From Candidatus Magasanikbacteria bacterium RIFCSPHIGHO2_02_FULL_48_18 (lineage in GTDB: Bacteria > Patescibacteriota > Patescibacteriia > Magasanikbacterales > UBA922): 64,000 nt of DNA. This document shows positions 1 to 15,362 of this stretch, one piece after another. The stretch covers positions 8,828-72,827 of the forward strand of contig MFQC01000009.1 in assembly GCA_001784285.1 (NCBI GenBank), in the 5' to 3' direction. The notes under the pieces were generated by a model. That model made no database searches. It was not told the DNA's origin and worked only from the letters and a program-made list of their open reading frames with translations. Both the position numbers and the translations under genes were made by a program. Each line of letters begins with the position of its first letter. The first letter of the stretch is position 1.

Positions 1-3000
1 TCCTATAAATCCAAGATATTTTCTTTCTATGCCCTTCATTGCGGCGTCAAATACTTGCTCAGGACTGGTGATATTCTCACCTCTGTCATCTTTCAACACT
101 TTTCCACCCTTCAAAAAAGCGCCTTTCAAAACAACCTGCCCGGCAAAAAGTTCTTGAACCGATGAAGCGGTTTGCCAATCTTTTTTTCCTTTGTTTGGAT
201 CTTCAATTCGAATAATCTTGCCATCCTTATCGGCAAATCCGTCTTTTTTTATTTTTTTAATTTTTCCTTGCCCCTCAAGGACTTGCTGGCCAGCGGACAA
301 CTGAGTAATCGCGTTCCCTTCCGCATCACGCAAAATAATGCCCTGTTCATCATAGTACGAACCCTTTTTTACCGCAGTCATCGCCCCGTATTTATTGTTC
401 AAAAATTCCTCTTGTGTTACCACGGATCCATCTGCATTTTCAATGAGGTGCTCTTTATGTTCAATACCATGAACATTGTTCTCCAATAGCTCGTCGACAC
501 TTGCGGCCTCCCTTTCGCCTCCCTTTCCATCGGGAACCATAAGCACTTTGCCATCCTCACCAACAAATCGCTGTTCTGAATTGAGAACACGCTCGAGCAT
601 CTTAAATTCTCCTTCCGGTCCAAAGGCTCTTTTTGTGGCTTCAAATTCATCCCGTTCTGCCGGGGAAAGACCATTTCTGTATTCTTCATCGGTTTCGTAT
701 CGTTCAATAGCCTGTCCCATGGAGTTAATGGCATCATCAAGATTTGCATTTTCCGCGAGATTACTCAACATGCCATACATGTGTTTTTGCACATCCATGG
801 AAACTCCTTCTTTCCCCTGCATACGCGCCTGCTCTCTATGAAACGCAAGCCGCATCAATGCCGCGCCGCCAAACTCGGCGCGTCCGGCTTCGTCAACGCG
901 GTTTAATGATTCGGCAATACGCTTTGCAGACGCCACAAACGACTGCGCGTAGGTGGCTTTCCCTTGCGCAGGCGCTTCAATAAAGGTGCCTTCCACTTCG
1001 GACTGCGTTTCTCCTTTAACAATGGCCATATTTTCTTCGTGCTCTTCCGCAAATTTTGCCTGTTGAATGGCGCGCGCAAAAACAGACGCGGCGTCATTGC
1101 CTTGAAGAAGCCAGAGATCCAAGTTGCCTTTATCTTTCATTTTTCTAAATTTGTCGAGCGACGACTCAAACACTTTTTCGAGATGCGCATTTTTCATGCC
1201 CTTGACGATGTCCTCGCCGATTTTCGCGCCTATCTCGGCTTCGCCAAGCTGTTCGGCGAGCTTTTTGCCGAGTGGCCCCATCCACACAGCCTCGGTGGCC
1301 TTGCTTTGCGCTTCTTTCAGTTTTTCTTCGGCCACGCGATTGGTTTCATGTTGCACAATATACTGGGCCGCGTTTCGAGAAGCCCTGCTATACACGCCCT
1401 CATCGCGTTTTGGCACCCAAGTGCGTTTGGATCCTTTCCACCGTTCCGGATGATTGATCCCGCTGATAGTGTCCCCGACCGCTTTAACATTTGCGGGGTT
1501 ACTGCGGAATTCTTCAAGACGAGAGTCGCTGTCAATCACCACTTCTTTGCCTCTCTCGTCCTTAATTGTTTTCTTTTGTTTTCTGCGTTTAAATTCTGCT
1601 TTTCCGGCTTCATCCATTCCTTGATACCCATGGTACTCATCGCCATGTTTTTTCTGCATCCACGCGTCAAATTGTTTATTTTGTTGTGCCACAATTTCCG
1701 GGTCCGCCAAAAATTCATCCTCTACCTTTACCTCTTGGTCCGCCCCTATCTGAGTGAATTTCATCCATCCTGACCTCGACTTATCACTGGAAAGAGCGGC
1801 ATACTCCTTATATTCATTAGGATGCTCAACCTCCAGCCATTGTCCAAATTGTTTTAGTTGCTCTGCCGAGACTTCCGGATCCTTCGCAAATTCTTCGTCT
1901 AAGGAACCAAGATCTTTTTGCACCTCAACGGACTTAGTTACTTTTTTCTTTTGTTTGTCAGTGATAAGTTTTGTTTTCCCGGGTTCGTCCGCGGCAGTGT
2001 AGTTCACGTACGCACCCGCATTTTCTTTTTGAAGCCATCGTTCAAATTGTTGTGTTTGTTCAGGGGCAACCATAGAATCTTTTCGAAATTCTTCCAGATG
2101 TTGTTTTTTAAATTCCCATTGTTGGAGCGTATTCATTTCCTTATACCCGTTGTATTGCACCGGATCTTTTGCTTTTATCCAATTTCGAAACTTTTTATCC
2201 TCATCTTCCACAAATTCCGGCGTGTGACGAAACTCGTCAATAAACGAAGGGGCATCTTCTTCCACTTCTTTTTGCTGTTTTACCGTCGTGGTTCGTTTCT
2301 TTTCGCGAAACGCTTTTTTCCCCTCGTCATCCAGCGCGGCATAGCCTTGGTACTCGTCCGCGTGCTCTTTTTCCATCCACCCCTCAAACTCATGATCTTC
2401 CGCGGCGACCACCAATTGGCGCCCTTCTTTGAGAAGGCGTTCTCTGTTTCGATGTTCACGCGACTTTTTGTTTTCCGGACTGCGCATCTGAATCGCGGCC
2501 ATCTCCTGATATTCCGCAAAATTTCTCCGAGCGGTCATGGCATCAAGCCCAACTATACCCACATACTTTTTCTGTTTGATTTTATTCCCATCTTTATCAA
2601 CTTTATCTCTCATTTCATACGCTGTCGTGCCATCCGCGTTCTTTTTTTCCACTCTTTCTTGTTCATATTTAAAGTCGCCTTTTTCATCGTCCCATTCATA
2701 GTCAACCTGGCCCAATCTTTTTAGAATTGGTATTTGGCCAAACACCTTATTAACCAGAGCCGTACCGGCCAAAGACAGAGGGGGTTCATTTTTACTCATG
2801 TCTTTGGCGCGACTGTCTTTTTGCTGTTTTTTTACCGCCTCGACACGATCATCGAGTTTATCCTGATATTCTTCATTATACCCCCCAATAAGAGGGATAT
2901 GACGAATATACTTATTTTGCCGTCGAAACTCATCCAAACGTTTCCCGGCGCGAATCCAACTTCGGCCGCCAATAAAAGGCGCGTTCATAAGGCTCTTCTT

Positions 3001-4125
3001 GCCTTTTTCCAATCCTTTCCCCACCAACCACCGTCCGGCCGCGTACCCGCTCGCGATGGTTGCCACTTTCTTTCCAAAATCAAGGACTCCCCCGACAAAA
3101 CTGCCCCCGACAGCGCCAACTTTTTGGACCGCCGTGAGCCCGACAAACAAAAATGCGATAGCAATAAAAAAATTTGCCATGTTTTCCCACGTGGTCACTT
3201 CGCTTGAGGACACTTTGAGCGTGCCCCCGGGAACGCCTGCCTGCTGAAGCACTTTTTGCGCGTCCGAGCCGTCAATATTGAGTCCCAAATCCGACATGGC
3301 AACGTCGCCCGTTCCAAGCGTGGCAAACGCAAGCCAGAGAAAGAATACCGCGACCGGCGCCACAATCACTTCTTTACCAAACATGGACCACCATTCTTTT
3401 GCGTACTGTTTGGTTTGCGGAATAACGTTCATGATATACGCCATTGGCGACAAAATAATCAACACCCACAATACAATGACCCGGAGTATCATCACAAACA
3501 AATACGCGCCAACAACCGCAAGTCCCATGAGCGCAAAAACAAAGGCCATAACCGCGCCGCCAAAGAGTTTAATGTCAATGCCTCCGGTCATAATATCTTC
3601 ACCGACCACATTGAGAATCGAGTTCATGCGGAGCATTTCAATAAGGTTGCCCCCGGCCGTGTTTTGGATGGCCGTCACAAAGGTCATGGTAAAGATATGC
3701 GCGGCGTCAATAATAAGGCCGGCAATGAGTTTGCTGAAATTGACAAGAAGCGCCGCCAAGATAAAATGCGCAAGCGTTTTTTTCCATTCGTATTGTTCAA
3801 TACCAAGGACCGTGCCAAACGCGATAACAAGCAATACCACCACAAAAAACATATTGGCAACGTCGCGCACCATAAACCAGCCGATGACGACGGTCGGTGT
3901 GTCAACATAGCCATTATATTTTGCGAGTTCGACAAAAAATTTGAAGAAAAACATGGTCAAGCTCATGAGCACAGTGGCAAGCTCAATCAAAATCCACGAC
4001 GCAAAGTGCAAGAGCGCGTCAAAAACGCCGGTTGCGACATCACCCAGCAAATCAAAAATCGCGTTTGCCGGTGTGGCGGTGAAAACCAGCCCGGAGACAA
4101 CAAAAAATAAGAAGATCGGCGTCAT
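1..4125 (-). CDS. TrbL/VirB6-like polytopic membrane protein with long charged C-terminal tail (partial, runs off the left edge; at least 1375 aa)
   Basis: Absent from the ORF track, consistent with no in-window stop. Manual spot translation from ATG 4125 (alternative GTG 4176) is open at every point checked, including the window edge, and gives MTPIFLFFVVSGLVFTATPANA...GWFMVRDVANMFFVVVLLVIAFGTVLGIEQYEWKKTLAHFILAALLVNFSKLIAGLIID, a motif typical of Patescibacteria VirB6/TrbL-like proteins. The long + strand ORFs 172/964/1918/2734/3256 are its antisense shadows. Confidence 0.8.
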   Translation of the reverse strand, partial: MTPIFLFFVVSGLVFTATPANAIFDLLGDVATGVFDALLHFASWILIELATVLMSLTMFFFKFFVELAKYNGYVDTPTVVIGWFMVRDVANMFFVVVLLVIAFGTVLGIEQYEWKKTLAHFILAALLVNFSKLIAGLIIDAAHIFTMTFVTAIQNTAGGNLIEMLRMNSILNVVGEDIMTGGIDIKLFGGAVMAFVFALMGLAVVGAYLFVMILRVIVLWVLIILSPMAYIMNVIPQTKQYAKEWWSMFGKEVIVAPVAVFFLWLAFATLGTGDVAMSDLGLNIDGSDAQKVLQQAGVPGGTLKVSSSEVTTWENMANFFIAIAFLFVGLTAVQKVGAVGGSFVGGVLDFGKKVATIASGYAAGRWLVGKGLEKGKKSLMNAPFIGGRSWIRAGKRLDEFRRQNKYIRHIPLIGGYNEEYQDKLDDRVEAVKKQQKDSRAKDMSKNEPPLSLAGTALVNKVFGQIPILKRLGQVDYEWDDEKGDFKYEQERVEKKNADGTTAYEMRDKVDKDGNKIKQKKYVGIVGLDAMTARRNFAEYQEMAAIQMRSPENKKSREHRNRERLLKEGRQLVVAAEDHEFEGWMEKEHADEYQGYAALDDEGKKAFREKKRTTTVKQQKEVEEDAPSFIDEFRHTPEFVEDEDKKFRNWIKAKDPVQYNGYKEMNTLQQWEFKKQHLEEFRKDSMVAPEQTQQFERWLQKENAGAYVNYTAADEPGKTKLITDKQKKKVTKSVEVQKDLGSLDEEFAKDPEVSAEQLKQFGQWLEVEHPNEYKEYAALSSDKSRSGWMKFTQIGADQEVKVEDEFLADPEIVAQQNKQFDAWMQKKHGDEYHGYQGMDEAGKAEFKRRKQKKTIKDERGKEVVIDSDSRLEEFRSNPANVKAVGDTISGINHPERWKGSKRTWVPKRDEGVYSRASRNAAQYIVQHETNRVAEEKLKEAQSKATEAVWMGPLGKKLAEQLGEAEIGAKIGEDIVKGMKNAHLEKVFESSLDKFRKMKDKGNLDLWLLQGNDAASVFARAIQQAKFAEEHEENMAIVKGETQSEVEGTFIEAPAQGKATYAQSFVASAKRIAESLNRVDEAGRAEFGGAALMRLAFHREQARMQGKEGVSMDVQKHMYGMLSNLAENANLDDAINSMGQAIERYETDEEYRNGLSPAERDEFEATKRAFGPEGEFKMLERVLNSEQRFVGEDGKVLMVPDGKGGEREAASVDELLENNVHGIEHKEHLIENADGSVVTQEEFLNNKYGAMTAVKKGSYYDEQGIILRDAEGNAITQLSAGQQVLEGQGKIKKIKKDGFADKDGKIIRIEDPNKGKKDWQTASSVQELFAGQVVLKGAFLKGGKVLKDDRGENITSPEQVFDAAMKGIERKYLGFIG

Positions 4126-4315
4126 CCATTTTTTTGCTCGGAAGAGCGACGTTATTTTTTTTCCAACATGCTTCACAGCCAAGAAATCATGGAGTGATCA
4201 ATTGTGAAGAAGTATAGCATAAAAAAGAAAAAAAATGGAGAAAAAATCGTTATTTTGGGGATAGTATTTCATAAACACGTTATCCACTTTTTATCCTTGA
4301 CAAACCTTTGTCACC

Positions 4316-4344: not shown

Positions 4345-4399
4345 AGAATTGGAGAATTGTGTTTATTTTTTCGCTTGAAAAAAGCAAAAAGCTCTTTAA

Positions 4400-4462
4400 A
4401 AAAACAAAAAGGCTTGCACACACAAGCCTCCTTCGGTGGTGGACCGTGGGGGAATTGAACCC
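4400..4462. repeat. 63-bp exact direct repeat A, copy 1 (terminator plus tRNA-like 3' end)
   Basis: Identical to 4735-4797; identity ends just beyond the T-loop. Confidence 0.95.
4401..4429 (-). terminator. intrinsic terminator downstream of tRNA-like RNA 1
   Basis: Minus strand AGGCTTG-TGTGTG-CAAGCCT followed by TTTTGTTTT. Confidence 0.8.
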
Positions 4463-4509
4463 CAAGAGTGAGGATGGTAAGCCTACTCGTGCACCTGCAC
4501 ACACGGCCC
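4437..4509 (-). tRNA. atypical tRNA-like RNA 1 (73 nt; anticodon ambiguous, TAC/Val or ACC/Gly; G3.U70)
   Basis: GGGCCGT GT GTGC-AGGT-GCAC GAGTAGG-CTTACCAT-CCTCACTC T TGGGG-TTCAATT-CCCCC ACGGTCC ACCA: 7-bp acceptor stem, 4-nt D-loop, 8-nt anticodon loop with a bulged stem, canonical T-loop, encoded CCA. Confidence 0.55.
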
Positions 4510-4525
4510 ATAGTCCACCAAAAAA

Positions 4526-4534
4526 AGTATACCA
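4526..4534 (-). promoter_or_regulatory. extended -10 promoter for tRNA-like RNA 1
   Basis: TG-G-TATACT, then 6 nt, then GGTGGAC leader; same spacing as in cassette 2. Confidence 0.55.
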
Positions 4535-4535
4535 T

Positions 4536-4577
4536 AAAAGAAAATCCTCAACAAAGAATTTATGTTGAGGACTTTCT
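4536..4577 (-). terminator. intrinsic terminator of sRNA 1
   Basis: AGAAAGTCCTCAACA-TAAATTCTT-TGTTGAGGATTTTCT-TTT. Confidence 0.7.
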
Positions 4578-4631
4578 CCGGGATTCACCCGACCGAATAT
4601 GCAGTTTTATACGAAGTAGGTTTACCATCCT
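4536..4631 (-). ncRNA. putative ~95-nt small RNA complementary to tRNA-like RNA 1
   Basis: Bounded by TTGACA-17-TATCCT and a 15-bp terminator hairpin. Its predicted 5' end AGGAUGGUAAACCUACU pairs 16/17 with the anticodon arm AGUAGGCUUACCAUCCU. Confidence 0.55.
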
Positions 4632-4637
4632 AAAACA

Positions 4638-4666
4638 AGGATACCCCATTTTAAAAACCCTGTCAA
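4638..4666 (-). promoter_or_regulatory. sigma70 promoter of sRNA 1
   Basis: TTGACA(4666-4661)-17 nt-TATCCT(4643-4638); the same -35/-10 pair occurs upstream of nusA. Confidence 0.65.
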
Positions 4667-4709
4667 GTGGAAAAATGATAGATCACTCCATCCAAACAAA
4701 CCAATTGAG

Positions 4710-4738
4710 ATAGAGTAATCCATCGTTCTTTCACAAAA
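4710..4738. repeat. 29-bp exact direct repeat B, copy 1
   Basis: ATAGAGTAATCCATCGTTCTTTCACAAAA, identical to 5017-5045. Confidence 0.95.
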
Positions 4739-4797
4739 ACAAAAAGGCTTGCACACACAAGCCTCCTTCGGTGGTGGACCGTGGGGGAATTGAACCC
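4735..4797. repeat. 63-bp exact direct repeat A, copy 2
   Basis: Identical to 4400-4462 (offset 335 bp); contains the terminator and 3' end of tRNA-like RNA 2. Confidence 0.95.
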
Positions 4798-4847
4798 GTT
4801 CCACTGTGTGTCAAGTACAGCATGCTCACCAGATACACTACTGGCCC
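4772..4847 (-). tRNA. atypical/chimeric tRNA-like RNA 2 (76 nt; probably GAC/Val, alternatively TGA; G3.U70)
   Basis: GGGCCAG TA GTGT-ATCTGGTGA-GCAT G CTGT-ACTTGACAC-ACAG TGGA ACGGG-TTCAATT-CCCCC ACGGTCC ACCA. U8, D-loop GG, T-loop and CCA are present. Acceptor pairs 6-7 and the two outer T-stem pairs are mismatched. Confidence 0.5.
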
Positions 4848-4866
4848 TTACTAGTCCACCAAATTT

Positions 4867-4875
4867 ATATTAACA
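4867..4875 (-). promoter_or_regulatory. extended -10 promoter for tRNA-like RNA 2
   Basis: TG-T-TAATAT, then 6 nt, then GGTGGAC leader. Confidence 0.5.
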
Positions 4876-4946
4876 TAAAAATCTCCCCGGAGGAAGATCT
4901 TTACGTTGACACACAGTTTCAACCAGTAGAAATCTAGTTGCTGTAC
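4876..4946 (-). ncRNA. putative ~70-nt small RNA complementary to tRNA-like RNA 2
   Basis: GUACAGCA-ACUAGAU-UU-CUACUGG-UUGAA-ACUGUGUGUCAA-CGUA followed by a terminator hairpin (AAAGATCTTCC-TCCG-GGGAGATTTTT). Each block complements part of tRNA-like RNA 2. Confidence 0.55.
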
Positions 4947-4952
4947 AAAAAT

Positions 4953-4982
4953 ACAATATCACATATCTGGAAACTTTGTCAA
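4953..4982 (-). promoter_or_regulatory. sigma70 promoter of sRNA 2
   Basis: TTGACA(4982-4977)-18 nt-TATTGT(4958-4953) with an extended -10 TG. Confidence 0.55.
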
Positions 4983-5016
4983 GCGAAAGCCCGATGGTTT
5001 ACCCGATTAAAATACA

Positions 5017-5045
5017 ATAGAGTAATCCATCGTTCTTTCACAAAA
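5017..5045. repeat. 29-bp exact direct repeat B, copy 2
   Basis: Identical to 4710-4738. Confidence 0.95.
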
Positions 5046-5194: not shown

Positions 5195-5246
5195 TGGAGC
5201 GGTTGGATGTGTCATCCTGATCAGAATGACATACCCAACTGCTCCA
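5195..5246. repeat. 52-bp imperfect inverted repeat centred on CTGATCAG
   Basis: TGGAGCGGTTGGATGTGTCAT...ATGACATACCCAACTGCTCCA. Confidence 0.8.
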
Positions 5247-5308
5247 CGGACAAGGCGAAACCGTGGGACCACAATGCCGCATCCAGGCGGCGAGACAGGA
5301 GGTGCCAC

Positions 5309-6043
5309 ATGGCACGTTTCATCGCCCTCGCCGCCACCCTGGCGGCGTGCTTCTTCCTCGCGTGCGAGGAGGAAGGGACTGGTCCCACCGACGGGACCAC
5401 TGCGACGACAACGGGCTCCGCCGCAGGCGAGCCCACCACCCCCAGCAACGACGGCAACGACTGCACCGACAACAACCCGTGCACCGAGGAGACGTGCGAC
5501 GGCGACGTTTGCACGACCCATACTGAGTCGTGCAACGACAACGGATGCACCGAGGAATGGTGCAACCAATGGGGGTGCTCCAGTTGCACCAACTGGAGCA
5601 GTGGCGCCTCGGGGTGCACAGGCACCCCGGGCGGCCCTACTGCCCCCATTGTCGACCCCGACCCCCCTGGCGACGACCCCGTCCCCCCGCCGGAGGTCGA
5701 CTGCTCGGCCTGGACAACTCTCCTTTCCGGCACGTTCTACGAGCCGGAGCTGATCGGGGAGTTCGAAGTCCCTGGTTTTATTCAGTACCTCGAACCGGAC
5801 TTCGAGGGGATCGTCGGCGCGGGCTACGGCCTGTGCCGGTCGTCTGTTGATGACGCAATCGGCGTCGTCGACAACGTGTGGGGTGTGCTCGATGGAGCAG
5901 GAAAGAACATCGCCTGTGGACCGTTCCCGGGCGATAGTGTGCTCCACTTCGAGCCGATCGACAGCGACTGCATCAAAATCGGAGGGACTGCCCTTACAAA
6001 CTGGAGCATCCCCAACGATTTTTTGATTGCATGCCGACTGTGA
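5309..6043 (+). CDS. GC-rich Cys-rich putative lipoprotein (244 aa)
   Basis: AGGAGG at 5297-5302 before ATG 5309; signal peptide with lipobox FFLAC; Thr/Gly linker; DCTDNNPCTEETC repeats; Pro-rich linker. Confidence 0.8.
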   Translation: MARFIALAATLAACFFLACEEEGTGPTDGTTATTTGSAAGEPTTPSNDGNDCTDNNPCTEETCDGDVCTTHTESCNDNGCTEEWCNQWGCSSCTNWSSGASGCTGTPGGPTAPIVDPDPPGDDPVPPPEVDCSAWTTLLSGTFYEPELIGEFEVPGFIQYLEPDFEGIVGAGYGLCRSSVDDAIGVVDNVWGVLDGAGKNIACGPFPGDSVLHFEPIDSDCIKIGGTALTNWSIPNDFLIACRL

Positions 6044-6124
6044 AACCCAAGAGCGCCAGGTCCCGCCTCACACGCCTGCGCTCGCTGTATATAGAAACAC
6101 TTCTGTTCTGTATAGAGCGTACCA

Positions 6125-6326: not shown

Positions 6327-9300
6327 TTACTTCTGCTCCGGCACCACAATAATAACACCATGATAATAGGTCCATCGTTCTTTGTTATAATTATCCTCAC
6401 ACTCTTTATTTCCTCCGGCATTAAAATCATTATACAACCCCTCCTCACTCGGAATCATATCCTTATTCTTCCCGCCCGGAATCCATGCCGGGCCGCCGGT
6501 CGCGGAACTCTTTGACGCGTTGCACCAACCCCAGTTGTCAAGGACCTGTACCCGCGGGCGGTACGCGCACACTTTGGACGGTTCATAGCCAACCAAATCC
6601 ACGACGCCTTTTTTCTGCCACTCGGTGAGCGCGGAAAAATCCACATTCGCGCTTCCTGAAGAACATTCATACGTATACTCGGCCTTAAACGGCTTGTCGA
6701 CGCACGCGCGGTCGCTGTTGCCAAAGCGCGGTTTATTGTATGAATCAGTGTATGTTTGTTGGTACGATGGAAGATCTTTTTCCTTATAACACAAGAGGTC
6801 GTCAAATCCGAGAGCATGCGGACAATCGTCTTCTTTGTCGTACGCTTTGCAGGTCATAAGGTCGGGAAGCTGTTCTGAGCCGCCGCCCCAACACACCCCA
6901 ATATCGCCTTCGGAGAATTCGCAGAACGGTTTGTAGTTTTCGTAATACCCATGCGTTTTTTCGTTCGTAATATAACCGGTTGCCGAATCGTCCCAATCAA
7001 TCATAATGCGCCGGATGGGCATATGATTATCGTCGGCCGCGACAAAAAATTCGGCTGTGGCTTTGAACGTTTTTTGGGCTATATGCATGGTCGGTTCCGG
7101 CGCGTTGTTTGGCGCTTCGTCCGGATCATTATTGGGATCACGATCATAATTATACTTTGTGCCATTTTTTCCTGTAACAGTAAAATTGTGTTTGTCACCC
7201 GCAGTACATGGTCCATGTTCTCCATAACAACGGTATGGATTGAGCGAATAGACAACAGGCGGGCGATTATTGGTTGGTTTGTTATACTCTGATCCTTCAT
7301 CCCATGCCGTTTTACTCTCAAACTCATCCGGCTTCTCGCCCGTTTTGCGCATTTTTATAGAAAATGTTTTTGCAAACAATTGAGCGAGCCGACTCTTGCC
7401 AATATAATCCGGATCATAACTAGCATAATATGACCCAATGCCAAATTCCATATCACCGGGAATCGTTAAACCATCGCCCAAACTACTGCATCGGAAATCA
7501 TTGGTACCACTCCAATCCGGGATTGTTTGCCACATGTAATCCCATAAATAATCTGAACCACTTGGACCAATATTATCATCCGCCACGGGTTCGGCATTCA
7601 GTTCATTCGTACCCGCATAGATATTTTTTCCAAACAATTTTCCGCATGCGTATGGAACGCCCTGGTTATCATTAAAAGTATATTTGCGTAAGATACTATC
7701 GGTTTCCAAATCATCTTCAATTAAATCGAGAGACCCATATGGTGGATTTTCTGTTTCAAACCATTTTACCTCATCACTGAAAAATTTTGGTTCGCCTACA
7801 TCCCAGTGGGGTGATGGCGGATAAATTTGAGATGCCTGCCACACACGATTGGTCCACGCCTTATTCGTCGGTTGATCCGTATCAATCTTGGTGTCATCGT
7901 AGACGCTCGCAAATTCAGTACATCGGGGGTTGAGCTCAACCAGAACAGAGAGAAGCGCATGTCTTCCTACAGCATGATTTTTAACATCGTCATCATCATT
8001 TTTATATCTCTCGCTATATTTATACCACAAATTACCCCCGTCATAAGAGAGTTTTCCATCTCCATTATTGAATCGAATCATCCACACATTGTATGGCGCT
8101 TTCGCTTGTGTTTCTATAGGCACATTATACAAACTTTCTTCAATTATACTACGATATATTGTGTTTCCATCATCTTCTCCACTTTGGAAAATAGCGATAC
8201 CATAGACATGCTTTCCGTCATTAGAATCCCCTGTATACGCATCTTTGTTTATTCCAAAAAATTGCACAGCCTGAAATTTCTTTGTTTTGCCGAGAGCAAA
8301 TTCTTTCACACTAAAAGCATACGTTTCATCTTTTGGCGCATCCTCATGAAGAGGAGACTGGGGATTGTCTATTTTCATTGCTTGGAGATTTTCAAAATCT
8401 ATTTCAAGCCCTGGATAAAAATGAGGTAAATTGAGTTCATTATAAGCACCCGGATCTCCTGCCAACATCATCGGGCCCATATGAAATTTCTTGACATCTT
8501 GTTCATACAGATCCCCCTGCATTCGATAATCCTTGCCAAAGGTACCAATAATATACTTGGCAATAGGAGTCTTTCCTTTTCCATCTTCATCCCAAGCCTT
8601 TGTCTCTTCTACGTCGGTATATATATAACCGGAAGCATCCGTGACCGGAATTTTTTCGCTCAGCATGGACCACCAGCCCGGGCTGTCAATCCATAATACT
8701 TCCGTATTGGGACTTCCTTTCCCATCGTTAATGCCATGCCAACCATACAATTTCATAAACGTATATATTTTTTTCTGGTACGCTAAAGACTGCAATTTCA
8801 AATCGCTTCCGAGCTCGCCGGTAGTCGCCCCCTTTGGAATATTCATGGGTGGGAGATCGGCGATATTATCATATTGCGTACCGCCATCTGACCACCATGT
8901 AACCCAAAGAGGAGGCGCATTCAAAAGTGAAGTCCAGCGCTCATCGCCAGTATCCCCCGCAAGATCGTCTATTTCTGGACCCAAAATATCTTCCAATTCA
9001 ATATATACCGGAGCATCGCTATCATCATAGGTAAGAGAATTAGAATGAAAAATTTTATAATACATATCCTTTGAATAAGTTAACCCAGAGCTAGGATAAG
9101 CATAATTTATTGCTTTCAACATTTCGACACCACTCAACACCATACTTTGGTTATAGGCCGGCGCGGCGGCGGCGACCGTGCAATACACCTGGCCCTTGCC
9201 ATTATTGGAATCCAATGCCACATCATAGCCGGTTGTCGGATCGTTGTTATAAATATCAACACCGGTCACATTGACGTCCAACGGCAACCATGTTTGACAT

Positions 9301-12300
9301 GCATAGAGGCCGGTGCCACCTCCCAATGGGCGGCTGAGATCGCGCTCCAGACAAAAACCGCTTGTTCCCACGTGCATGGATTTGTTGGTATAAGGCGATT
9401 CTTTGCAAATCAATCCGTCGCCGCACTGACCGTCGTCGGTTTGGCATGGCTTGCCTATATTTCCCGCGTCTTCCACTTCGCCCGACCCCGAAAGGCCCGA
9501 ATCCGCCGGCAATTGACACGTTCTCGGACCGTGGCTTGCTTGCCCGAGCGGCCAATACCCAACATTGCCATCCGCATATTCGTTAACGAGATAACTGCAC
9601 GAACAGTCGCCCTTTTGGCAGATATTCGCTTTGTCGTATCCTTCTATTTTTTGCGTATATAATTTGAAAAACGAAGGCGACGGCGTGTTTCCTTCCACGT
9701 CTTTTTGTAGATCTTTTGCAAAATTGACCGGAAACGGACTGTCTTCTTCCGGATAGACTTTACAGCTTGCCGGGATAAGATCATCCTTGGTAAATTCATC
9801 CTTTTCACCCAAGCCCGAAATTGGGTAGACGCATTCGCCGCTGTAACACTTTCCTTTGCTGTCCTCGCCGCATAAGGCTCCATCATTTTTCGGCACTACA
9901 TTGCCAGAGACTGTTTTAAAACAAGAACTTTGATCCGGATTGGACGACGAATCGGCATAAAATTTGTACGCGAGGTAGCTGGTTTTCCCGGTCGTGCCGC
10001 TGTCAATGCCAATATAGGTAAAATCATTGATTTGGTATCGGTTAAAAAGCGAGTAGCCCGTATACTCCGGATCGCCATACCACGTCGTGTCGCGGGCAAT
10101 GTATTTTTCTTCAGTCAAAAACTTGGACTCATGCGGGTAATCGCTCTGTTCCACCCAATCCACGCAATCTTTGCCATCTCGTTCGGTGCATGCCCGATAA
10201 TCTTCGCACACGTCAAGCGTCAGTCCCGTTTCTTGCTGTTGTTTTGTCTGCGACGACCGGCAGGCCAGCCACTCGGCGCATACGCGATCGCGATTCACTT
10301 TCAAAATGATATTGCTGTCCCCGCCGGACACGCTACTTGCTTGTTTTGGCGAGACCAAATTGTCATTATTTTTTTCGCTGTCCGTATACGTCGCCTGGGC
10401 AAGATACGGACGGGTTGACTCGTCCACCTTATTCAACAACACGCACCCTTCTTTTAAGCTCACCTTGCCGCCGCATTCGTCAATACGATTGGTAATAGTA
10501 CTGTTGAAAATAACGGGATATGGGGTGCCGTTCGGATATTTGGCCGTTTTGTCAACCGGATCAACCAACTCGGTACAGCCATTAAATTGTTCCGGGCACT
10601 GCCCCACCAATCCATCATATTGAAATGCGCCATTGGAATAAATACCAAACGATGTGTCGGCAAGAATATACCCCGGATAACACGGAATTTTATTTTTATT
10701 TTGGCACATGCCGGAAGCGCATTCTTGATCGGCAGTACACAATGATCCGTTGGTACATTCGCCCACATCTTTCTTTACCCACCCGGAACGGGTAATACCG
10801 GTCTTGTCGACAAAAGACTCCTGATAGACGCATTGCGCGTTGCCATTTTTGAGCGGATCTTTAAAGAAAGACACCGTGTTTCCGGAATTGAACTGGCCGC
10901 ATCCGAGCAAATCCTCGCGGCACAGCACGCCTTCCGGACCAAGATATTTGTCCGGATTGTTTTTGATGTACTCTTTCTCAAAAGAATATGATCCCGCCGC
11001 AGTAAACCCGTCCGGGACCGCCTGTTCGCGCAATGCGATTTTTTCACATCCCAAAAATGCCTGATCGCACACGGTATTTTTGGTTTTGGTAAGGAAAATG
11101 GGGTCGTTTTCGGGCGTATCCGCGCCAATCAGCACGCTCGAATCATCCACAAACAAAATATCCGGCGAGGTATTGGTGCTGTTTTGTTGCACGGCAAGAA
11201 ATGTCACAAACGGCTGCAACTCAAATTTCCCAAAAGAATACGTTGCATCGGGCAATGCTATGGGGCCGGGAATATAACATATTTTTGAACCGGTTGGAGG
11301 CGTGCAGGTATGGTTGGCTCCATTCAAATTAACCGTGCAGGTATTCCCAGACGAGGTATTTTTATAGCACGCAATGTTGTAGACGATCCGGTCTTCCGCG
11401 CCATCCATGGCAATGGTATTTTGGGTGTCATATAGCGCGGTACATCCGACTGCTTCTGGCCGGCAGAGCGACGCAAAACCGGTCGCGTACCACAGCGTAT
11501 TTTGCGTATCCGTGTACATTTGACATCCCAACGCTTCGCCCGGCAACCCGTCGGTCGGGTCGCTGTCGCACGCTATAGGCGCGTTTGCACTCACCAATCC
11601 GCCCTCATACTCTATCGTGCGTTGCCATGAATTTTTGATAAGATGATATTGATCCACGAGACGCGTCAGGCGCACATTGTCCAGAAAATATCCTCCCGGT
11701 GTACCTTCGCGTTTGAATACCAAAGAAACCGGATCGGTTGTGTTGCCGGTAAATTGAACAGGACCGATATGATACAATTGCCAGGACTCCTGGAGCTCGA
11801 TTTTATTTTCCTTGTTCAAGAGAGGATCAAAGGTAAAATACCAGCTCGTCTCTGTCTTGCCATTTTGCGACAAGTTGATGGACAATTGTTGCCCCGCGAC
11901 GCCGCGCGCCCAGAACGAAAGCTCGTACCAATTGGCGGCATCCTCTGCATTGCCGCTTTGGATGGTTCCGGTTGCAATGATCCGTTCCACTTTTTCGGTA
12001 TTGACCAATAACGAATACAGCCCGACTTGGATAGATTCGGCCGCGACGGAAATGCTTCCGGCGGCGATATCGACTTTTTTCCAATCTTTTTTGGCATCGT
12101 TCAGGGCGTTTGCGTCGTCTCCGGACGGTTCAAAAATATCAAGAAATACCTGTTCGACATTGTTTCCCGAATTGCCTACATACAAACGGCACCCGCTGGC
12201 TTCTTTGGGACAAGCATTTGCCTGGCCGGGCGTATTGATGGTGTTATACACGCACGATCCTCCGGAGGCCGGATTATTTTCGTCGGGTTTGTATGCTCCG

Positions 12301-15300
12301 CCGTTCGCGCACACCATACAGCTCGCGGTACTCTCTGCCCACAATCCTTTTCGTTCGGCGCACAATTGTTTGGACGTATCGAGCGACAAAAGATCGTCTT
12401 TGACCAAGGTTACACTGGTTTTGCGCAATGGATGGCACAATTCATCGACCAGCGCGACCTCCGACAATACGCGATAAAACACCTGCCCGCTTTTATCATA
12501 GAGCGCACGACAATCAAGGCTTGCCGCGTCAATACTCCCGGGATTATTCACTAATATGCTATAGGTATCTTCATTGCACACGGCCTGTAAATTTTTGAGC
12601 GCCATATAACTCGTGTCCGCGTACGCGGGGGATCCTTTCGGGTAAGCGGCCGTGAGCGCATTTTTTACCACTGTATCTGTGACTAAATCAAACATCTTCG
12701 TGAGATACGAATTTTTGGTATCGTCGATCTGGAGCAGGCGATGCGTCCGCAAGACATACCCCTTCTGCACCGACCCTTCCCACGAATAAAATATTTTTTC
12801 ATTATCATCGGCCGGTTTTTCACAATAGGTGAGATCCGTGTAATATTCCAAACCTTCGCCGCCTTTTTCCACAGTATCGATATTGGTAAATTCATCACAG
12901 CCTTCATACGCAACCGTACAGGAGAGTCCCTGTTCTTTCATGAGATCTTGCGCGTATGTCGGCACAAAATACAATGGAAATTGCGCCCCCTCAAAATTGG
13001 TCTCCGCTTGCTTGTACGCGTCATACCCGACACAGCTCAGATCGCACTGATTATTTCCAATAAGCGCGGGAACCGCAGGTCCGCCCGCAAGCGGGGTATA
13101 GGCATCGCACCCAACTTCTTCGGCAACGCACGCTCCCGCAAAGTTGCCGCATTCGGGATTGCCGGAAAGAAAATTCAAATCCGCTTTTTTCTTTGGGTAT
13201 TCAATCGCCTCGGTTCCCGCATTGGTATCATAACATCCCAAATAGTCCGGCGCTTTTTTGAGATACAGGGTATTCTCCGGGCTCGTATCTTTCACATACG
13301 CGTTTGCCGCCGCGTCGAATACGCGAGGATAAAAGGCCGAACAGCCCTCATTGTCTCCGGTACACGTTTGCGAAGCGATTTTTGCATTGAAATAAAGTGT
13401 TGGATTTCTCCCCGCTTTTTTATACTCTTTCCATATTCCCGAATCGAGCATGCCCGGATATACCCATGCTTCATTGACCTGTTCCGCCCCATACGCGGAA
13501 CACCCCACGGATTGGGCCGAACACTCCCCGTACTCAAGCGTTCGCGTGAGGTAGGATGACACTGTGTTCGTTCCCGCGTTGACAAATGTTTGACAGGAAG
13601 TAAATGGCAAAGGACACGAATCTCCCGGTATTCTCCAGGTATTTTCTTCCTTTGTGCAGTATCCATAGAGTTGCGGCGCCTCGCACACGCTGTTTGGCCC
13701 TTCTGAAATGCATGTAGAAAAATCAAGACATTCTTCCATGCGCTTTGCGCCATCGCTCGTCAGCAATTGATCGCTATACCCATAGGCCATACAGCGGGTT
13801 TCCGGAACTCGAATCACCCAGTTCGGATCAATAAGATGACAATATGGATATTCCGCGCTCGGCGCTCCGCTTGGGTGGCACTGATCAAATCCTTTGACAA
13901 CCTCTTCAAGCTTCCATGGGTTGTCGGACGGCGACTTGAGCGCGGCAATTTCAAACCCAATGGGAAGAATGCGCGCTTTTCGTATTTTTTGGATATTGGA
14001 ATAACAATAGGCCTCGCGGAAACAATTGCGGTCCCGATTTTGCAATTCTCGTTTGGGAGAAATCAACTCCCAGTCGCCATGCAAAAACGACCCTTTCGTG
14101 TCAGCGAGCGCTTCGCCAATGGTCATGGCCCGGCCGGTCTTTGCCTGCGCGATGGCGTTTGCAAGCCCTTGTTCCATGACACAATTATTGATGCCAACCG
14201 GAGTATTGCCCTCCGGACACGCGGTAAATTGCTGAACGATATTAAAATTTTCTATCTGAACAGGCGTCTTGGTCAATAAAAAGCCAAAGACCTGTTGTGC
14301 AATGCTCTTTTTACTTGCTCCGCTTGGCGATTGGGAATACGGGTTGACCACCGAATCCGGATTTGCCGCGTCTTCTCCTCCTCCGCCTGAGGAAGGAAAC
14401 AATCCTCCGGTCAATAATTGCTCCAACAACTGCGTCGTCAAGGTATTCAAAAATACCGACGCGGCATACGGAAGTATTTGAATGGTTGGCGCGGCGTAAA
14501 TAGCACTAATCTGCCCGGCAGTAATTTCTTTTGATTTCAATCCAGTCAATTCCTTCGATTCTTCTTTGACCAGTTGTGCCGGTGAAATAGTTGTTCCGGA
14601 AATAAGTTCTTTCACTGCCTTAAAGCCGTCTCCTTCCATCCGCTCTTGGAGAGCGCCCAATTCCTGCTGGAAACTTTTCTGCCGCACCTGGCCCAAAGCG
14701 CCGAGCGAAACTCCAAAATCCGTACTGTCCGCGTTGAGAGAGGCGCTAAATGATTCGGCAATAAATTTTTGTCCGTAGGGACCGAATTTTTCTTCAAACG
14801 CTTCCGGGCTATACGCATTTTTGAGATCTTGCCAGGAACAATCCAGCCCTCCACCCATAAATTTTTGACTTAATCCCAACTGCAGACTGATTTGCAACGC
14901 TAAATTTGGCTGACAAATATCTATCCCAAATGCTTTTTCCCCCAACGTCTGGATGGATTGCGCGGCGGCATCAAGCGCCACATTTTCAAAATAGGTGGCC
15001 GCCCCTTCCTGAAAGACCAACGGCTCTTCGCCAGCCGCTTTGGTGGAAAGCCATGTCGCGGCGTCGTACGCCAACTTATTTAAAAAATAGGATACACCTT
15101 CAATGAGGGCGCTTAATCCCCCAGCAAGGAGACTCTGCCACATGTTGAAATCCAATTTTTTTTCCGCTTTTTCGGCCAGCGCTCTGGCTTCATTTCTGGC
15201 TTGAATGGCTTCGCGTTGGGCAGTCGCAGGCGCGTCAGTCCATTGTGCAAAGACCATTGTCGGAAAAAAAGAAAAAAGAAAAAGACAGAGACAAAAAATT

Positions 15301-15362
15301 GGCTTCATTTTTGAAGAAAAAAAATGGAAATAATGTTGTTTTCTTGAAAAGAAAGGAATCAT
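6327..15362 (-). CDS. giant (3011 aa) secreted Cys-rich surface protein with a carbohydrate-binding-like module
   Basis: Long ORF; N-terminal signal peptide; helical N-terminal region; many Cys-rich modules; WYELSFWARG...YFLDNVRL resembles a galactose-binding/CBM4-9-like fold. Confidence 0.85.
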   Translation of the reverse strand: MIPFFSRKQHYFHFFSSKMKPIFCLCLFLFSFFPTMVFAQWTDAPATAQREAIQARNEARALAEKAEKKLDFNMWQSLLAGGLSALIEGVSYFLNKLAYDAATWLSTKAAGEEPLVFQEGAATYFENVALDAAAQSIQTLGEKAFGIDICQPNLALQISLQLGLSQKFMGGGLDCSWQDLKNAYSPEAFEEKFGPYGQKFIAESFSASLNADSTDFGVSLGALGQVRQKSFQQELGALQERMEGDGFKAVKELISGTTISPAQLVKEESKELTGLKSKEITAGQISAIYAAPTIQILPYAASVFLNTLTTQLLEQLLTGGLFPSSGGGGEDAANPDSVVNPYSQSPSGASKKSIAQQVFGFLLTKTPVQIENFNIVQQFTACPEGNTPVGINNCVMEQGLANAIAQAKTGRAMTIGEALADTKGSFLHGDWELISPKRELQNRDRNCFREAYCYSNIQKIRKARILPIGFEIAALKSPSDNPWKLEEVVKGFDQCHPSGAPSAEYPYCHLIDPNWVIRVPETRCMAYGYSDQLLTSDGAKRMEECLDFSTCISEGPNSVCEAPQLYGYCTKEENTWRIPGDSCPLPFTSCQTFVNAGTNTVSSYLTRTLEYGECSAQSVGCSAYGAEQVNEAWVYPGMLDSGIWKEYKKAGRNPTLYFNAKIASQTCTGDNEGCSAFYPRVFDAAANAYVKDTSPENTLYLKKAPDYLGCYDTNAGTEAIEYPKKKADLNFLSGNPECGNFAGACVAEEVGCDAYTPLAGGPAVPALIGNNQCDLSCVGYDAYKQAETNFEGAQFPLYFVPTYAQDLMKEQGLSCTVAYEGCDEFTNIDTVEKGGEGLEYYTDLTYCEKPADDNEKIFYSWEGSVQKGYVLRTHRLLQIDDTKNSYLTKMFDLVTDTVVKNALTAAYPKGSPAYADTSYMALKNLQAVCNEDTYSILVNNPGSIDAASLDCRALYDKSGQVFYRVLSEVALVDELCHPLRKTSVTLVKDDLLSLDTSKQLCAERKGLWAESTASCMVCANGGAYKPDENNPASGGSCVYNTINTPGQANACPKEASGCRLYVGNSGNNVEQVFLDIFEPSGDDANALNDAKKDWKKVDIAAGSISVAAESIQVGLYSLLVNTEKVERIIATGTIQSGNAEDAANWYELSFWARGVAGQQLSINLSQNGKTETSWYFTFDPLLNKENKIELQESWQLYHIGPVQFTGNTTDPVSLVFKREGTPGGYFLDNVRLTRLVDQYHLIKNSWQRTIEYEGGLVSANAPIACDSDPTDGLPGEALGCQMYTDTQNTLWYATGFASLCRPEAVGCTALYDTQNTIAMDGAEDRIVYNIACYKNTSSGNTCTVNLNGANHTCTPPTGSKICYIPGPIALPDATYSFGKFELQPFVTFLAVQQNSTNTSPDILFVDDSSVLIGADTPENDPIFLTKTKNTVCDQAFLGCEKIALREQAVPDGFTAAGSYSFEKEYIKNNPDKYLGPEGVLCREDLLGCGQFNSGNTVSFFKDPLKNGNAQCVYQESFVDKTGITRSGWVKKDVGECTNGSLCTADQECASGMCQNKNKIPCYPGYILADTSFGIYSNGAFQYDGLVGQCPEQFNGCTELVDPVDKTAKYPNGTPYPVIFNSTITNRIDECGGKVSLKEGCVLLNKVDESTRPYLAQATYTDSEKNNDNLVSPKQASSVSGGDSNIILKVNRDRVCAEWLACRSSQTKQQQETGLTLDVCEDYRACTERDGKDCVDWVEQSDYPHESKFLTEEKYIARDTTWYGDPEYTGYSLFNRYQINDFTYIGIDSGTTGKTSYLAYKFYADSSSNPDQSSCFKTVSGNVVPKNDGALCGEDSKGKCYSGECVYPISGLGEKDEFTKDDLIPASCKVYPEEDSPFPVNFAKDLQKDVEGNTPSPSFFKLYTQKIEGYDKANICQKGDCSCSYLVNEYADGNVGYWPLGQASHGPRTCQLPADSGLSGSGEVEDAGNIGKPCQTDDGQCGDGLICKESPYTNKSMHVGTSGFCLERDLSRPLGGGTGLYACQTWLPLDVNVTGVDIYNNDPTTGYDVALDSNNGKGQVYCTVAAAAPAYNQSMVLSGVEMLKAINYAYPSSGLTYSKDMYYKIFHSNSLTYDDSDAPVYIELEDILGPEIDDLAGDTGDERWTSLLNAPPLWVTWWSDGGTQYDNIADLPPMNIPKGATTGELGSDLKLQSLAYQKKIYTFMKLYGWHGINDGKGSPNTEVLWIDSPGWWSMLSEKIPVTDASGYIYTDVEETKAWDEDGKGKTPIAKYIIGTFGKDYRMQGDLYEQDVKKFHMGPMMLAGDPGAYNELNLPHFYPGLEIDFENLQAMKIDNPQSPLHEDAPKDETYAFSVKEFALGKTKKFQAVQFFGINKDAYTGDSNDGKHVYGIAIFQSGEDDGNTIYRSIIEESLYNVPIETQAKAPYNVWMIRFNNGDGKLSYDGGNLWYKYSERYKNDDDDVKNHAVGRHALLSVLVELNPRCTEFASVYDDTKIDTDQPTNKAWTNRVWQASQIYPPSPHWDVGEPKFFSDEVKWFETENPPYGSLDLIEDDLETDSILRKYTFNDNQGVPYACGKLFGKNIYAGTNELNAEPVADDNIGPSGSDYLWDYMWQTIPDWSGTNDFRCSSLGDGLTIPGDMEFGIGSYYASYDPDYIGKSRLAQLFAKTFSIKMRKTGEKPDEFESKTAWDEGSEYNKPTNNRPPVVYSLNPYRCYGEHGPCTAGDKHNFTVTGKNGTKYNYDRDPNNDPDEAPNNAPEPTMHIAQKTFKATAEFFVAADDNHMPIRRIMIDWDDSATGYITNEKTHGYYENYKPFCEFSEGDIGVCWGGGSEQLPDLMTCKAYDKEDDCPHALGFDDLLCYKEKDLPSYQQTYTDSYNKPRFGNSDRACVDKPFKAEYTYECSSGSANVDFSALTEWQKKGVVDLVGYEPSKVCAYRPRVQVLDNWGWCNASKSSATGGPAWIPGGKNKDMIPSEEGLYNDFNAGGNKECEDNYNKERWTYYHGVIIVVPEQK

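Follow-up and report, generated by a model that had tools for sequence, protein, structure and literature searches.

Tandem tRNA-like RNAs paired with complementary small RNAs: a putative protein-free toxin-antitoxin family in Patescibacteria

Introduction

What is the role of two tandem cassettes, each encoding a tRNA-like RNA and a small RNA (sRNA) complementary to it, in the genome of Candidatus Magasanikbacteria bacterium RIFCSPHIGHO2_02_FULL_48_18? The cassettes occupy positions 4400-5045, on the minus strand, of the window, by which we mean the whole 64,000-nucleotide (nt) stretch of contig MFQC01000009.1 that was analyzed (assembly GCA_001784285.1, positions 8,828 to 72,827). An initial annotation had proposed that the tRNA-like RNA is a toxic or mistranslating effector neutralized by the co-encoded antisense RNA. 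We report that this RNA-only system is real, conserved, and apparently undescribed. We identified 109 distinct tRNA-like genes that are accompanied by a cognate sRNA; almost all of them are from Patescibacteria. As judged from the sequences, each pair is probably a protein-free toxin-antitoxin (TA) module, the toxin of which would be a mistranslating alanine tRNA.

Organization of the two cassettes

Both cassettes consist of an sRNA unit and a tRNA-like unit in the order TTGACA promoter, sRNA with terminator, extended -10 promoter, GGUGGAC leader, tRNA-like RNA ending in ACCA, and terminator. All parts of the shared minus-strand architecture described by the initial annotation were located as drawn. 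The features are as follows.

4953..4982, minus strand: promoter of sRNA A (TTGACA at 4982-4977, 18-nt spacer, -10 box TATTGT at 4958-4953; consensus match only)
4875..4946, minus strand: sRNA A, about 72 nt, with a 3' end formed by a hairpin-plus-U intrinsic terminator; by duplex prediction, a 5' block pairs with tRNA A from the 5' strand of the acceptor through the anticodon stem and a second block pairs with the anticodon loop and 3' stem strand
4867..4875, minus strand: promoter for the tRNA A precursor, of the extended -10 type (TGn-TAATAT), identified by sequence
4848..4860, minus strand: leader A (GGUGGAC...); a predicted duplex with GUCCACC covers the CCA end
4772..4847, minus strand: tRNA-like RNA A (tRNA A), with a class A (7/5-type) 5' part, G3•U70, A73, and CCA, called tRNA-Ser(tga) by ARAGORN; anticodon loop U-UGAC-A, read as UGA with C37 or as four-base UGAC
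4735..4768, minus strand: intrinsic terminator 3' of tRNA A
4710..4738 and 5017-5045, no strand assigned: 29-nt direct repeat, 100% identical, bracketing cassette A
4638..4666, minus strand: promoter of sRNA B (TTGACA at 4666-4661, 17-nt spacer, TATCCT at 4643-4638)
4538..4631, minus strand: sRNA B, about 94 nt, with a terminator hairpin; predicted to pair through its 5' end across the anticodon arm of tRNA B, then with the D arm and acceptor 5' strand, while a later block can pair with the variable loop and T arm
4526..4534, minus strand: promoter for the tRNA B precursor, of the extended -10 type (TGn-TATACT)
4510..4519, minus strand: leader B (GGUGGACUAU); a predicted duplex covers C74-C75
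4437..4509, minus strand: tRNA-like RNA B (tRNA B), class B, with an 8-bp acceptor, 4-bp T stem, short variable loop, 8-nt anticodon loop CU-UACC-AU, G3•U70, A73, and CCA
4398..4433, minus strand: intrinsic terminator 3' of tRNA B

The predicted start lies exactly 7 nt past the -10 box in all four promoters, as had been noted, the promoter of sRNA A requiring an 18-nt spacer. The interiors of the cassettes, initially regarded as unrelated, are related in part: the last 26 nt of tRNA A and tRNA B and their terminators are identical, within a 68-nt direct repeat (97%). As a result of this shared 3' tail, the acceptor of tRNA A is imperfect and its T stem has 3 bp. From its sequence, tRNA A is likely to be a chimera of a class A front and a class B tail, arising perhaps by recombination or from an error of assembly. 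In tRNA B, the cloverleaf is the minimum free energy structure (z score of -2.7); ARAGORN overlooked this gene. No Rfam family reached its gathering score in the window; the match with the best E-value was tRNA-Sec (23.9 bits for a cut-off of 47), and the long variable arm typical of that family was absent.

Each sRNA is complementary to the tRNA-like RNA of its own cassette

In the window, predicted duplexes were stronger for the cognate combination of both sRNAs: -32.1 kcal/mol for sRNA A with tRNA A, plus -29.6 kcal/mol for the second block, versus -15.7 kcal/mol with tRNA B, and -47.9 kcal/mol for sRNA B with tRNA B versus -23.6 kcal/mol with tRNA A. When cognate and non-cognate duplexes were compared with dinucleotide shuffles, a check suggested by the initial annotation, the cognate value was reached by 0/300 shuffles for B with both measures and by 4/300 and 7/300 for A. 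The genome under study (G000; 1.1 Mb, 99% complete) harbors six cassettes, two in the window, one on C8, one on C4, and two on C11. In the corresponding 6 × 6 matrix, the cognate partner was the best in 6/6 rows by duplex energy and in 5/6 by co-folding, and none of the 44 native tRNAs was bound by any of the six sRNAs as well as its own tRNA-like partner. The proposed restriction of each sRNA to its own cassette holds as a preference but not in absolute terms, since window tRNA A is a further partner of the C8 sRNA (ddG of -15.3 versus -14.7 for its own tRNA).

A wider specificity matrix was built from 46 of 64 flagged genes, 4 having been dropped for ordinary alanine anticodons and 14 for the absence of a promoter-led sRNA candidate (12 genes with alanine anticodons, L097, for which an sRNA was found by eye, and L064, for which none was found). 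The sRNA window was taken as the best of one to three promoter-led candidates per locus; the same procedure applied to ordinary tRNA-Ala loci gave z scores between -1.5 and 1.0. The cognate sRNA ranked first in 36 of the 46 pairs, and in 39 after normalization. Within-class permutations reached the observed mean in 0/5000 cases for class A (16 pairs), class B (16), and class C (10); the small class 'O' (4 pairs) did not pass this test (220/5000). Kin are not independent in these pair counts, which consequently overstate the number of events.

Metagenomes added 34 pairs, for a total of 80, in which the sRNA was located upstream of the tRNA in 63 cases and downstream, past the tRNA terminator, in 17. 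Each sRNA has a promoter of its own, and occurrence on either side indicates that it is a separate unit. The anticodon was covered by the sRNA in 104/106 pairs, versus 53/106 with shuffled sRNAs. The complementarity comprises two blocks in swapped order, which is not what a plain inverted duplication would give. Cognate complementarity is conserved over about 100 homologous cassettes, in agreement with the co-variation of sRNA and tRNA-like RNA initially deduced from two.

The tRNA-like RNAs combine alanine identity with unusual anticodon loops

The alanine acceptor elements G1-C72, G2-C71, G3•U70, and A73 were present in 109/109 distinct genes, 29 of which were reached through sRNA models rather than through an acceptor pattern. 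According to Mukai 2017 (PMC5389517), G3:U70 is the main element recognized by alanyl-tRNA synthetase (AlaRS). The tRNA-like RNAs are predicted AlaRS substrates. The CCA end was encoded in 103/110 genes (a count made on 110 genes). The RNAs were 70-79 nt long with a short variable loop. Cloverleaf positions were paired in 94.9% of cases for classes A and C (44 sequences, 7/5 fold), 14/21 pairs having changed on both sides, and in 92.3% for class B (24 sequences, 8/4 fold), with 13/22 pairs changed on both sides; slid controls gave far lower values.

In nearly all genes, the anticodon loop either contained an arginine or cysteine anticodon or had U33 separated from the next A by four bases. The +1 frameshift suppressors are built in the latter way, with four bases between U33 and A37. 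Class C members are regular 7/5 tRNAs with a 7-nt loop and a purine at position 37, and a rough script classification assigned them the anticodons GCG (18), GCA (4), and CCG (1). The 8-nt loops of class B include U-UACC-A, U-UAUC-A, U-UGUC-A, and U-UGCU-A. Class A loops have the form U-UGAC-A with a weak 31-39 pair and can be read as UGA with C37 or as four bases. The anticodon register of classes A and B is ambiguous from sequence. The suggestion of a mistranslating effector is nonetheless better founded than it was initially, through the association of alanine identity with non-alanine anticodons or enlarged loops.

Eight loci (L059, L118, L126, L130, L177, L179, L199, and L214) encode a distinct type of tRNA-Ala(UGC), with the loop UUUGCAU. 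This type is preceded by a GGTGGAC leader, lacks an sRNA, and is a possible ancestor of classes A and C.

The leader is predicted to mask the CCA end

The predicted pairing of the leader over the CCA end, the alanine-type acceptor, and the chimeric nature of tRNA A had escaped the initial annotation. The leader started 6-7 nt past the -10 box in 41/46 homologues. A duplex of -6 kcal/mol or below between the leader and the 3' end was predicted in 106/108 genes versus 11/108 controls, and C74/C75 were predicted to pair with the leader in 99/108. The predicted probability of the G2-C71 pair was 0.93 in the mature tRNA, 0.20 in the precursor, and 0.83 with a neutral leader. Although the search pattern itself included the leader, compensatory leader/trailer variants were observed among the members found through their sRNA (L260, L272, L282, L297, and L313). 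In the window, the cloverleaf is predicted to survive in precursor B, with the CCA masked, and to be displaced in precursor A.

GGTGGAY was also detected directly 5' of ordinary tRNA-Ala genes in many Alphaproteobacteria and Verrucomicrobia, where it is complementary to their own 3' end (L032, L033, L037, L038, L040-L042, and similar loci). This may reflect a leader lock on normal tRNAs or an effect of the pattern and of kinship.

Distribution of the family

The pattern combining leader, acceptor, and T arm matched 17/201 genomes of the order, at least 118 loci in GTDB (about 140 estimated), many of which were ordinary tRNA-Ala genes, and 76 metagenome loci. Models of the sRNA alone, run on 107 family genomes, provided 29 more tRNAs; the neighbor search that followed an sRNA match used no acceptor filter for 35 loci and a loose 3' filter for the rest. 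sRNA A matched the class A sRNA model with 35.5 bits, being a training member of that model. Matches below 30 bits, many of which fit the promoter only, were not counted, and energy alone proved insufficiently specific for the detection of orphan sRNAs.

Named records with true members carried the labels Magasanik-, Uhr-, Komeili-, and Saccharibacteria, Paceibacter, or Patescibacteria; several records labeled Gammaproteobacteria contain the same sequences as genomes of the same family matched within the order. A sample of 401 genomes of the phylum gave 16 matches: G000 itself, four additional members, and ordinary tRNA-Ala in the other 11. A 400-genome sample of the phylum of G614 contained no member. 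Viral contigs gave 1 and 10 pattern matches, none with a cognate sRNA, and blastn searches of phages and plasmids gave no match.

The number of cassettes per genome varied from 0 to 6, with differing specificities and at unrelated sites, and the site orthologous to that of the window cassettes was empty in 11/11 relatives. G000 has three ordinary tRNA-Ala genes and encodes AlaRS, RNase P RNA, and RNase III; its smpB gene, on C11, is adjoined by a 3' end of the transfer-messenger RNA (tmRNA) type. A scan of G000 for a T arm plus CCA outside ARAGORN calls revealed no further such element with another acceptor. Although this genome is 99% complete, tRNA-Asn is missing from its ARAGORN calls, which include a single CAU tRNA and a tRNA-Ile(UAU).

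Two further loci were recorded. A GC-rich metagenome contig (L195:496-674) encodes an alanine-acceptor tRNA with an aspartate (GUC) anticodon and a downstream cognate sRNA (z score of -6.7), near the start of an apparently nhaA-like open reading frame (ORF); a homologue search gave no lineage placement, and the family may extend beyond Patescibacteria. In Burkholderiales, L064:1514-1591 encodes a G3•U70/A73 tRNA with an AGA-type loop, followed by a second tRNA, and no antisense RNA was found there.

The sRNA persists when the tRNA decays

If one RNA of the pair is harmful, incomplete cassettes should indicate which one. Among 54 sRNA matches of at least 30 bits, training members included, 47 were accompanied by an intact cognate tRNA, two by a tRNA with a mutated T loop (L252 and L279), one by a 5'-truncated remnant (L281), and three by no tRNA (L250, L254, and L256); L308 was unclear. 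Extra sRNAs without a tRNA of their own were located beside other cassettes (L020, L022, and L226). Conversely, no intact tRNA of the Patescibacteria type with full flanks was found to lack an sRNA; L189 and L218 were too near a contig edge for the sRNA to be judged. Decay is thus one-sided, the tRNA being damaged or lost while the sRNA persists, which is the trace expected of a toxin tRNA and an antitoxin sRNA.

Comparison with known systems

The validated type VIII TA systems are creTA and SdsR-RyeA, as listed in TADB 3.0 (PMC10767807). Like the cassettes, they consist, in outline, of two adjacent small RNA genes without a protein, one RNA being predicted to neutralize the other. CreA is described as repressing creT transcription via Cascade and CreT as sequestering rare tRNAs, whereas the cassettes are predicted to act by direct imperfect RNA pairing and their putative toxin is itself a tRNA. 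In creTA, a degenerate mini-CRISPR next to cas genes serves as the antitoxin; the cassette sRNA is complementary to the RNA product and not to the promoter, and no Cas family was found in 109 neighboring ORFs or in nine window proteins. SdsR and RyeA overlap on opposite strands and belong to Rfam families, in contrast to the cassette RNAs, which are encoded on the same strand without overlap and have no Rfam match. Of the attributes of a type VIII antitoxin, a co-encoded RNA with cognate complementarity and co-variation was found, and neutralization is predicted. That the tRNA-like RNA would inhibit growth, as a type VIII toxin does, is suggested by its alanine identity with a mismatched anticodon and by the one-sided decay. 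No ORF was conserved in the precursors and no neighboring protein family was conserved among the 109 ORFs.

In the type I system hok/Sok, the toxin gene hok codes for a peptide, and the Sok gene lies opposite it. The cassettes resemble hok/Sok in having an antisense RNA with a strong promoter and a toxin precursor predicted to be kept inert by long-range 5'-3' pairing until slow processing; they differ in their product, a tRNA instead of a peptide. The longest complete ORFs of the precursors ranged from 0 to 49 amino acids, with no common size, which gives no sign of a small toxin protein translated from the antisense target, as in type I systems.

Streptomyces tRNA-ProA and Salmonella sufA, sufD, and sufJ are natural missense and +1 frameshift suppressor tRNAs. 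As in the cassettes, acceptor identity is decoupled from the anticodon or the anticodon loop has an extra base. tRNA-ProA comes with its own synthetase, and we know of no dedicated antisense RNA or leader lock for any of these tRNAs.

Class B resembles allo-tRNAs, which, according to Mukai 2017 (PMC5389517), have an 8/4 acceptor branch and a long D stem with a tetraloop. The same source reports that allo-tRNAs have varied non-cognate anticodons, that G3:U70 8/4 tRNAs are charged with alanine in E. coli, that an induced missense allo-tRNA is lethal to cells, and that allo-tRNA genes lie near mobile DNA and protein TA genes. The variable arm of allo-tRNAs is long, however, and their identity is mostly that of serine (G73/U73), whereas the cassette tRNAs have a 3-5-nt variable loop and A73. 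Class B also differs by its 8-nt loops, and classes A and C are 7/5 rather than 8/4 or 9/3.

The term 'antisense' was absent from the main text and one supplement file of Mukai 2017 (PMC5389517), and from Krahn 2020 (PMC7609411) and PMC9897764. A literature search covering papers outside subscription, some in part, found no tRNA with a dedicated antisense RNA. Together with the Rfam result, this upholds the view that the layout has no described counterpart. A tmRNA or two-piece tmRNA was ruled out by the full anticodon arm, the tmRNA-type 3' end being located by smpB on C11. The cassettes would work like a type I or type VIII module and differ from creTA, SdsR-RyeA, allo-tRNAs, and tmRNA; membership in type VIII is putative.

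Proposed mechanism and alternatives

We lean, if slightly, towards a selfish family of TA modules made of RNA only, in which a code-scrambling tRNA toxin (alanine at arginine or cysteine codons, or four-base +1 decoding) has its CCA locked by a leader and is controlled by a dedicated anti-tRNA RNA, Patescibacteria harboring many mutually orthogonal pairs. The precursor would be made with its leader paired over the CCA, as predicted by folding, so that processing by RNase P and at the 3' end would be delayed and the 5' half left open. The sRNA, transcribed from the stronger TTGACA promoter, is predicted to capture the precursor in that interval and would direct it to decay, for which RNase III is encoded. 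Should the sRNA run out following loss of the cassette or arrest of its transcription, the mature, stable tRNA would be charged by AlaRS, an enzyme that ignores the anticodon. Class C would then place alanine at arginine or cysteine codons, and classes A and B would cause misreading or +1 slips at codons of the Gly/Asp/Ser/Val type. The garbled translation would lead to growth arrest, which would make the cassette addictive and could stabilize adjacent GC-rich genes. Reassignment of the genetic code was rejected by reasoning, native tRNAs for the affected serine, valine, glycine, aspartate, and arginine codons being present and the cassettes patchy.

Several points weigh against this proposal. 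The acceptor count is partly circular because 80 of the 109 genes came from a pattern demanding that acceptor. The chimeric tRNA A of the window may be inactive or mis-assembled. Classes A and B may decode poorly, given their pyrimidine 37 or 8-9-nt loops, and L116, L203, and the UGCU loops, if read from the 5' side, may read alanine codons, so that missense decoding cannot be the whole story. Members were absent from viral contigs, phages, and plasmids, where addiction modules are common, and the odd G3•U70 tRNA of L064 occurs outside Patescibacteria without an sRNA. Finally, many cassettes lie between housekeeping genes, and protection of a cargo is not general.

The same anatomy would suit a regulated, non-lethal recoding switch, in which stress or contact with a host would free the tRNA and thereby make the proteome more diverse or slow growth in a reversible manner, the sRNA being an ordinary repressor without addiction. 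Many cassettes are indeed chromosomal and beside housekeeping genes, none was found on phages or plasmids, and surface-protein genes are frequent neighbors. However, the patchiness (17/201 genomes with the strict pattern), the 0-6 copies at unrelated sites, and the orphan sRNAs resemble selfish modules, and the genes beside the cassettes at C9, C4, and C11 are intact ORFs that need no recoding. We regard such a switch as unlikely, though it deserves more weight than the readings that follow.

Somewhat less likely still is a role away from the ribosome: the tRNA-like RNA, its level set by the sRNA, would serve to decoy anticodon nucleases, to titrate AlaRS or EF-Tu, or to donate alanine for cell-envelope synthesis. 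Such a role would account for the aberrant anticodon loops of classes A and B, and some irregular tRNAs are charged yet unused in translation, according to Mukai 2017 (PMC5389517). It fits poorly with class C, a regular 7/5 tRNA that has kept a purine at position 37 and GCG, GCA, or CCG while its stems co-vary, with the conservation of loops within classes despite co-variation of the sRNA, and with the lack of a conserved protein partner.

Reversed polarity, with the sRNA as a toxin binding host tRNAs or mRNAs, like CreT or SdsR, and the tRNA-like RNA as a sponge, is highly improbable. The sRNA has the stronger consensus promoter, and known type VIII toxins are sRNAs (PMC10767807). Yet sRNAs persist without a tRNA or beside a damaged one, but not the reverse, they bind native tRNAs far less well (the comparison covering native tRNAs only), and a sponge would require neither alanine identity nor a leader lock.

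We attach as little credence to the view that there is no trans-acting pair and that the cassettes are relics of an inverted duplication, self-folding read-through transcripts, or integration leftovers at tRNA-Ala or tmRNA 3' ends. The 68- and 29-nt direct repeats of the window could suggest such an origin, but the swapped order of the complementary blocks, the sRNAs located 3' of the tRNA terminator (17/80), the conserved promoter spacing, the whole tRNAs with co-varying stems, and the location of the native tRNA-Ala and tmRNA genes elsewhere argue against it. Least probable of all is export of the tRNA to garble host translation while the sRNA protects the producer: Patescibacteria are inferred to be epibionts, and alanine identity would work in any bacterial host, but no delivery partner is conserved nearby and the distribution is patchy and site-variable.

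If the cassettes are TA modules with a tRNA toxin, they would provide, to our knowledge, the first tRNA known as a toxin and the first sRNA dedicated to silencing one tRNA gene. Natural missense tRNAs and tRNAs with four-base anticodons, so far seen unexplained, would thereby acquire a function, and it would become apparent how minimal genomes build protein-free addiction modules in about 250 nt. Annotation tools mis-call these genes, as illustrated by the ARAGORN results for tRNA A and class B, which can distort inference of the genetic code. The approximately 100 natural pairs would amount to a toolkit of orthogonal, switchable suppressor tRNAs.

Genomic context

One neighbor of the window cassettes, outside the RNA module, is a possible cargo gene.

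5311..6043, plus strand: GC-rich gene for a Cys-repeat lipoprotein-like protein, with no Pfam match

All six cassettes of G000, in four regions, are located at most 330 nt from an ORF with a GC content above 0.58, a property of 39/944 ORFs, and the two cassettes of C11 flank one such gene. In other genomes, 15/43 cassettes had a neighbor with a GC content of at least 0.55, versus 3/83 background ORFs, cassettes being the unit in the first count and ORFs in the second. The link is real but not general; this proportion, and the many cassettes beside housekeeping genes, are the reason why cargo protection is not general either. GC-rich ORFs were present at the window site in L316, L325, and L326, which weakens the case for the window gene as a recent cargo. 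The 109 neighboring ORFs had no protein family in common and included housekeeping genes, genes for Cys-repeat surface proteins, transposases, and protein TA genes. Cassettes recur beside dus (L007, L008, and L077) and pnp (L005, L010, and L013), which are possibly preferred insertion sites.

Metatranscriptome contigs at the locus and at C11 cover the GC-rich genes only; such contigs cannot show short RNAs and therefore say nothing either way on the cassettes. One of them, X1 (labeled metatranscriptome, depth of 27, from a run that is possibly DNA), spans window positions 5262-6082 and resembles a transcript unit over the GC-rich lipoprotein gene, extending from about 50 nt before the gene start to about 40 nt past the stop. 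An imperfect palindrome with 29-nt arms lies upstream from this gene (window 5195-5246).

The motif TTTG(W)AAAGAAC was detected at window positions 4725-4738 and 5032-5045 and, elsewhere in G000, at C11:2269 and 4596 and at C8:162325 and 163655. These sites, 6 of the 12 genome matches, are just 3' of cassette terminators and near GC-rich genes; a recombination or antitermination signal is possible. The island is flanked by giant ORFs of the secreted type, of 1832 and 3011 amino acids and without a Pfam match (window 1-4182 and 6327-15362, minus strand), the first of which was conserved in 18/21 genomes searched.

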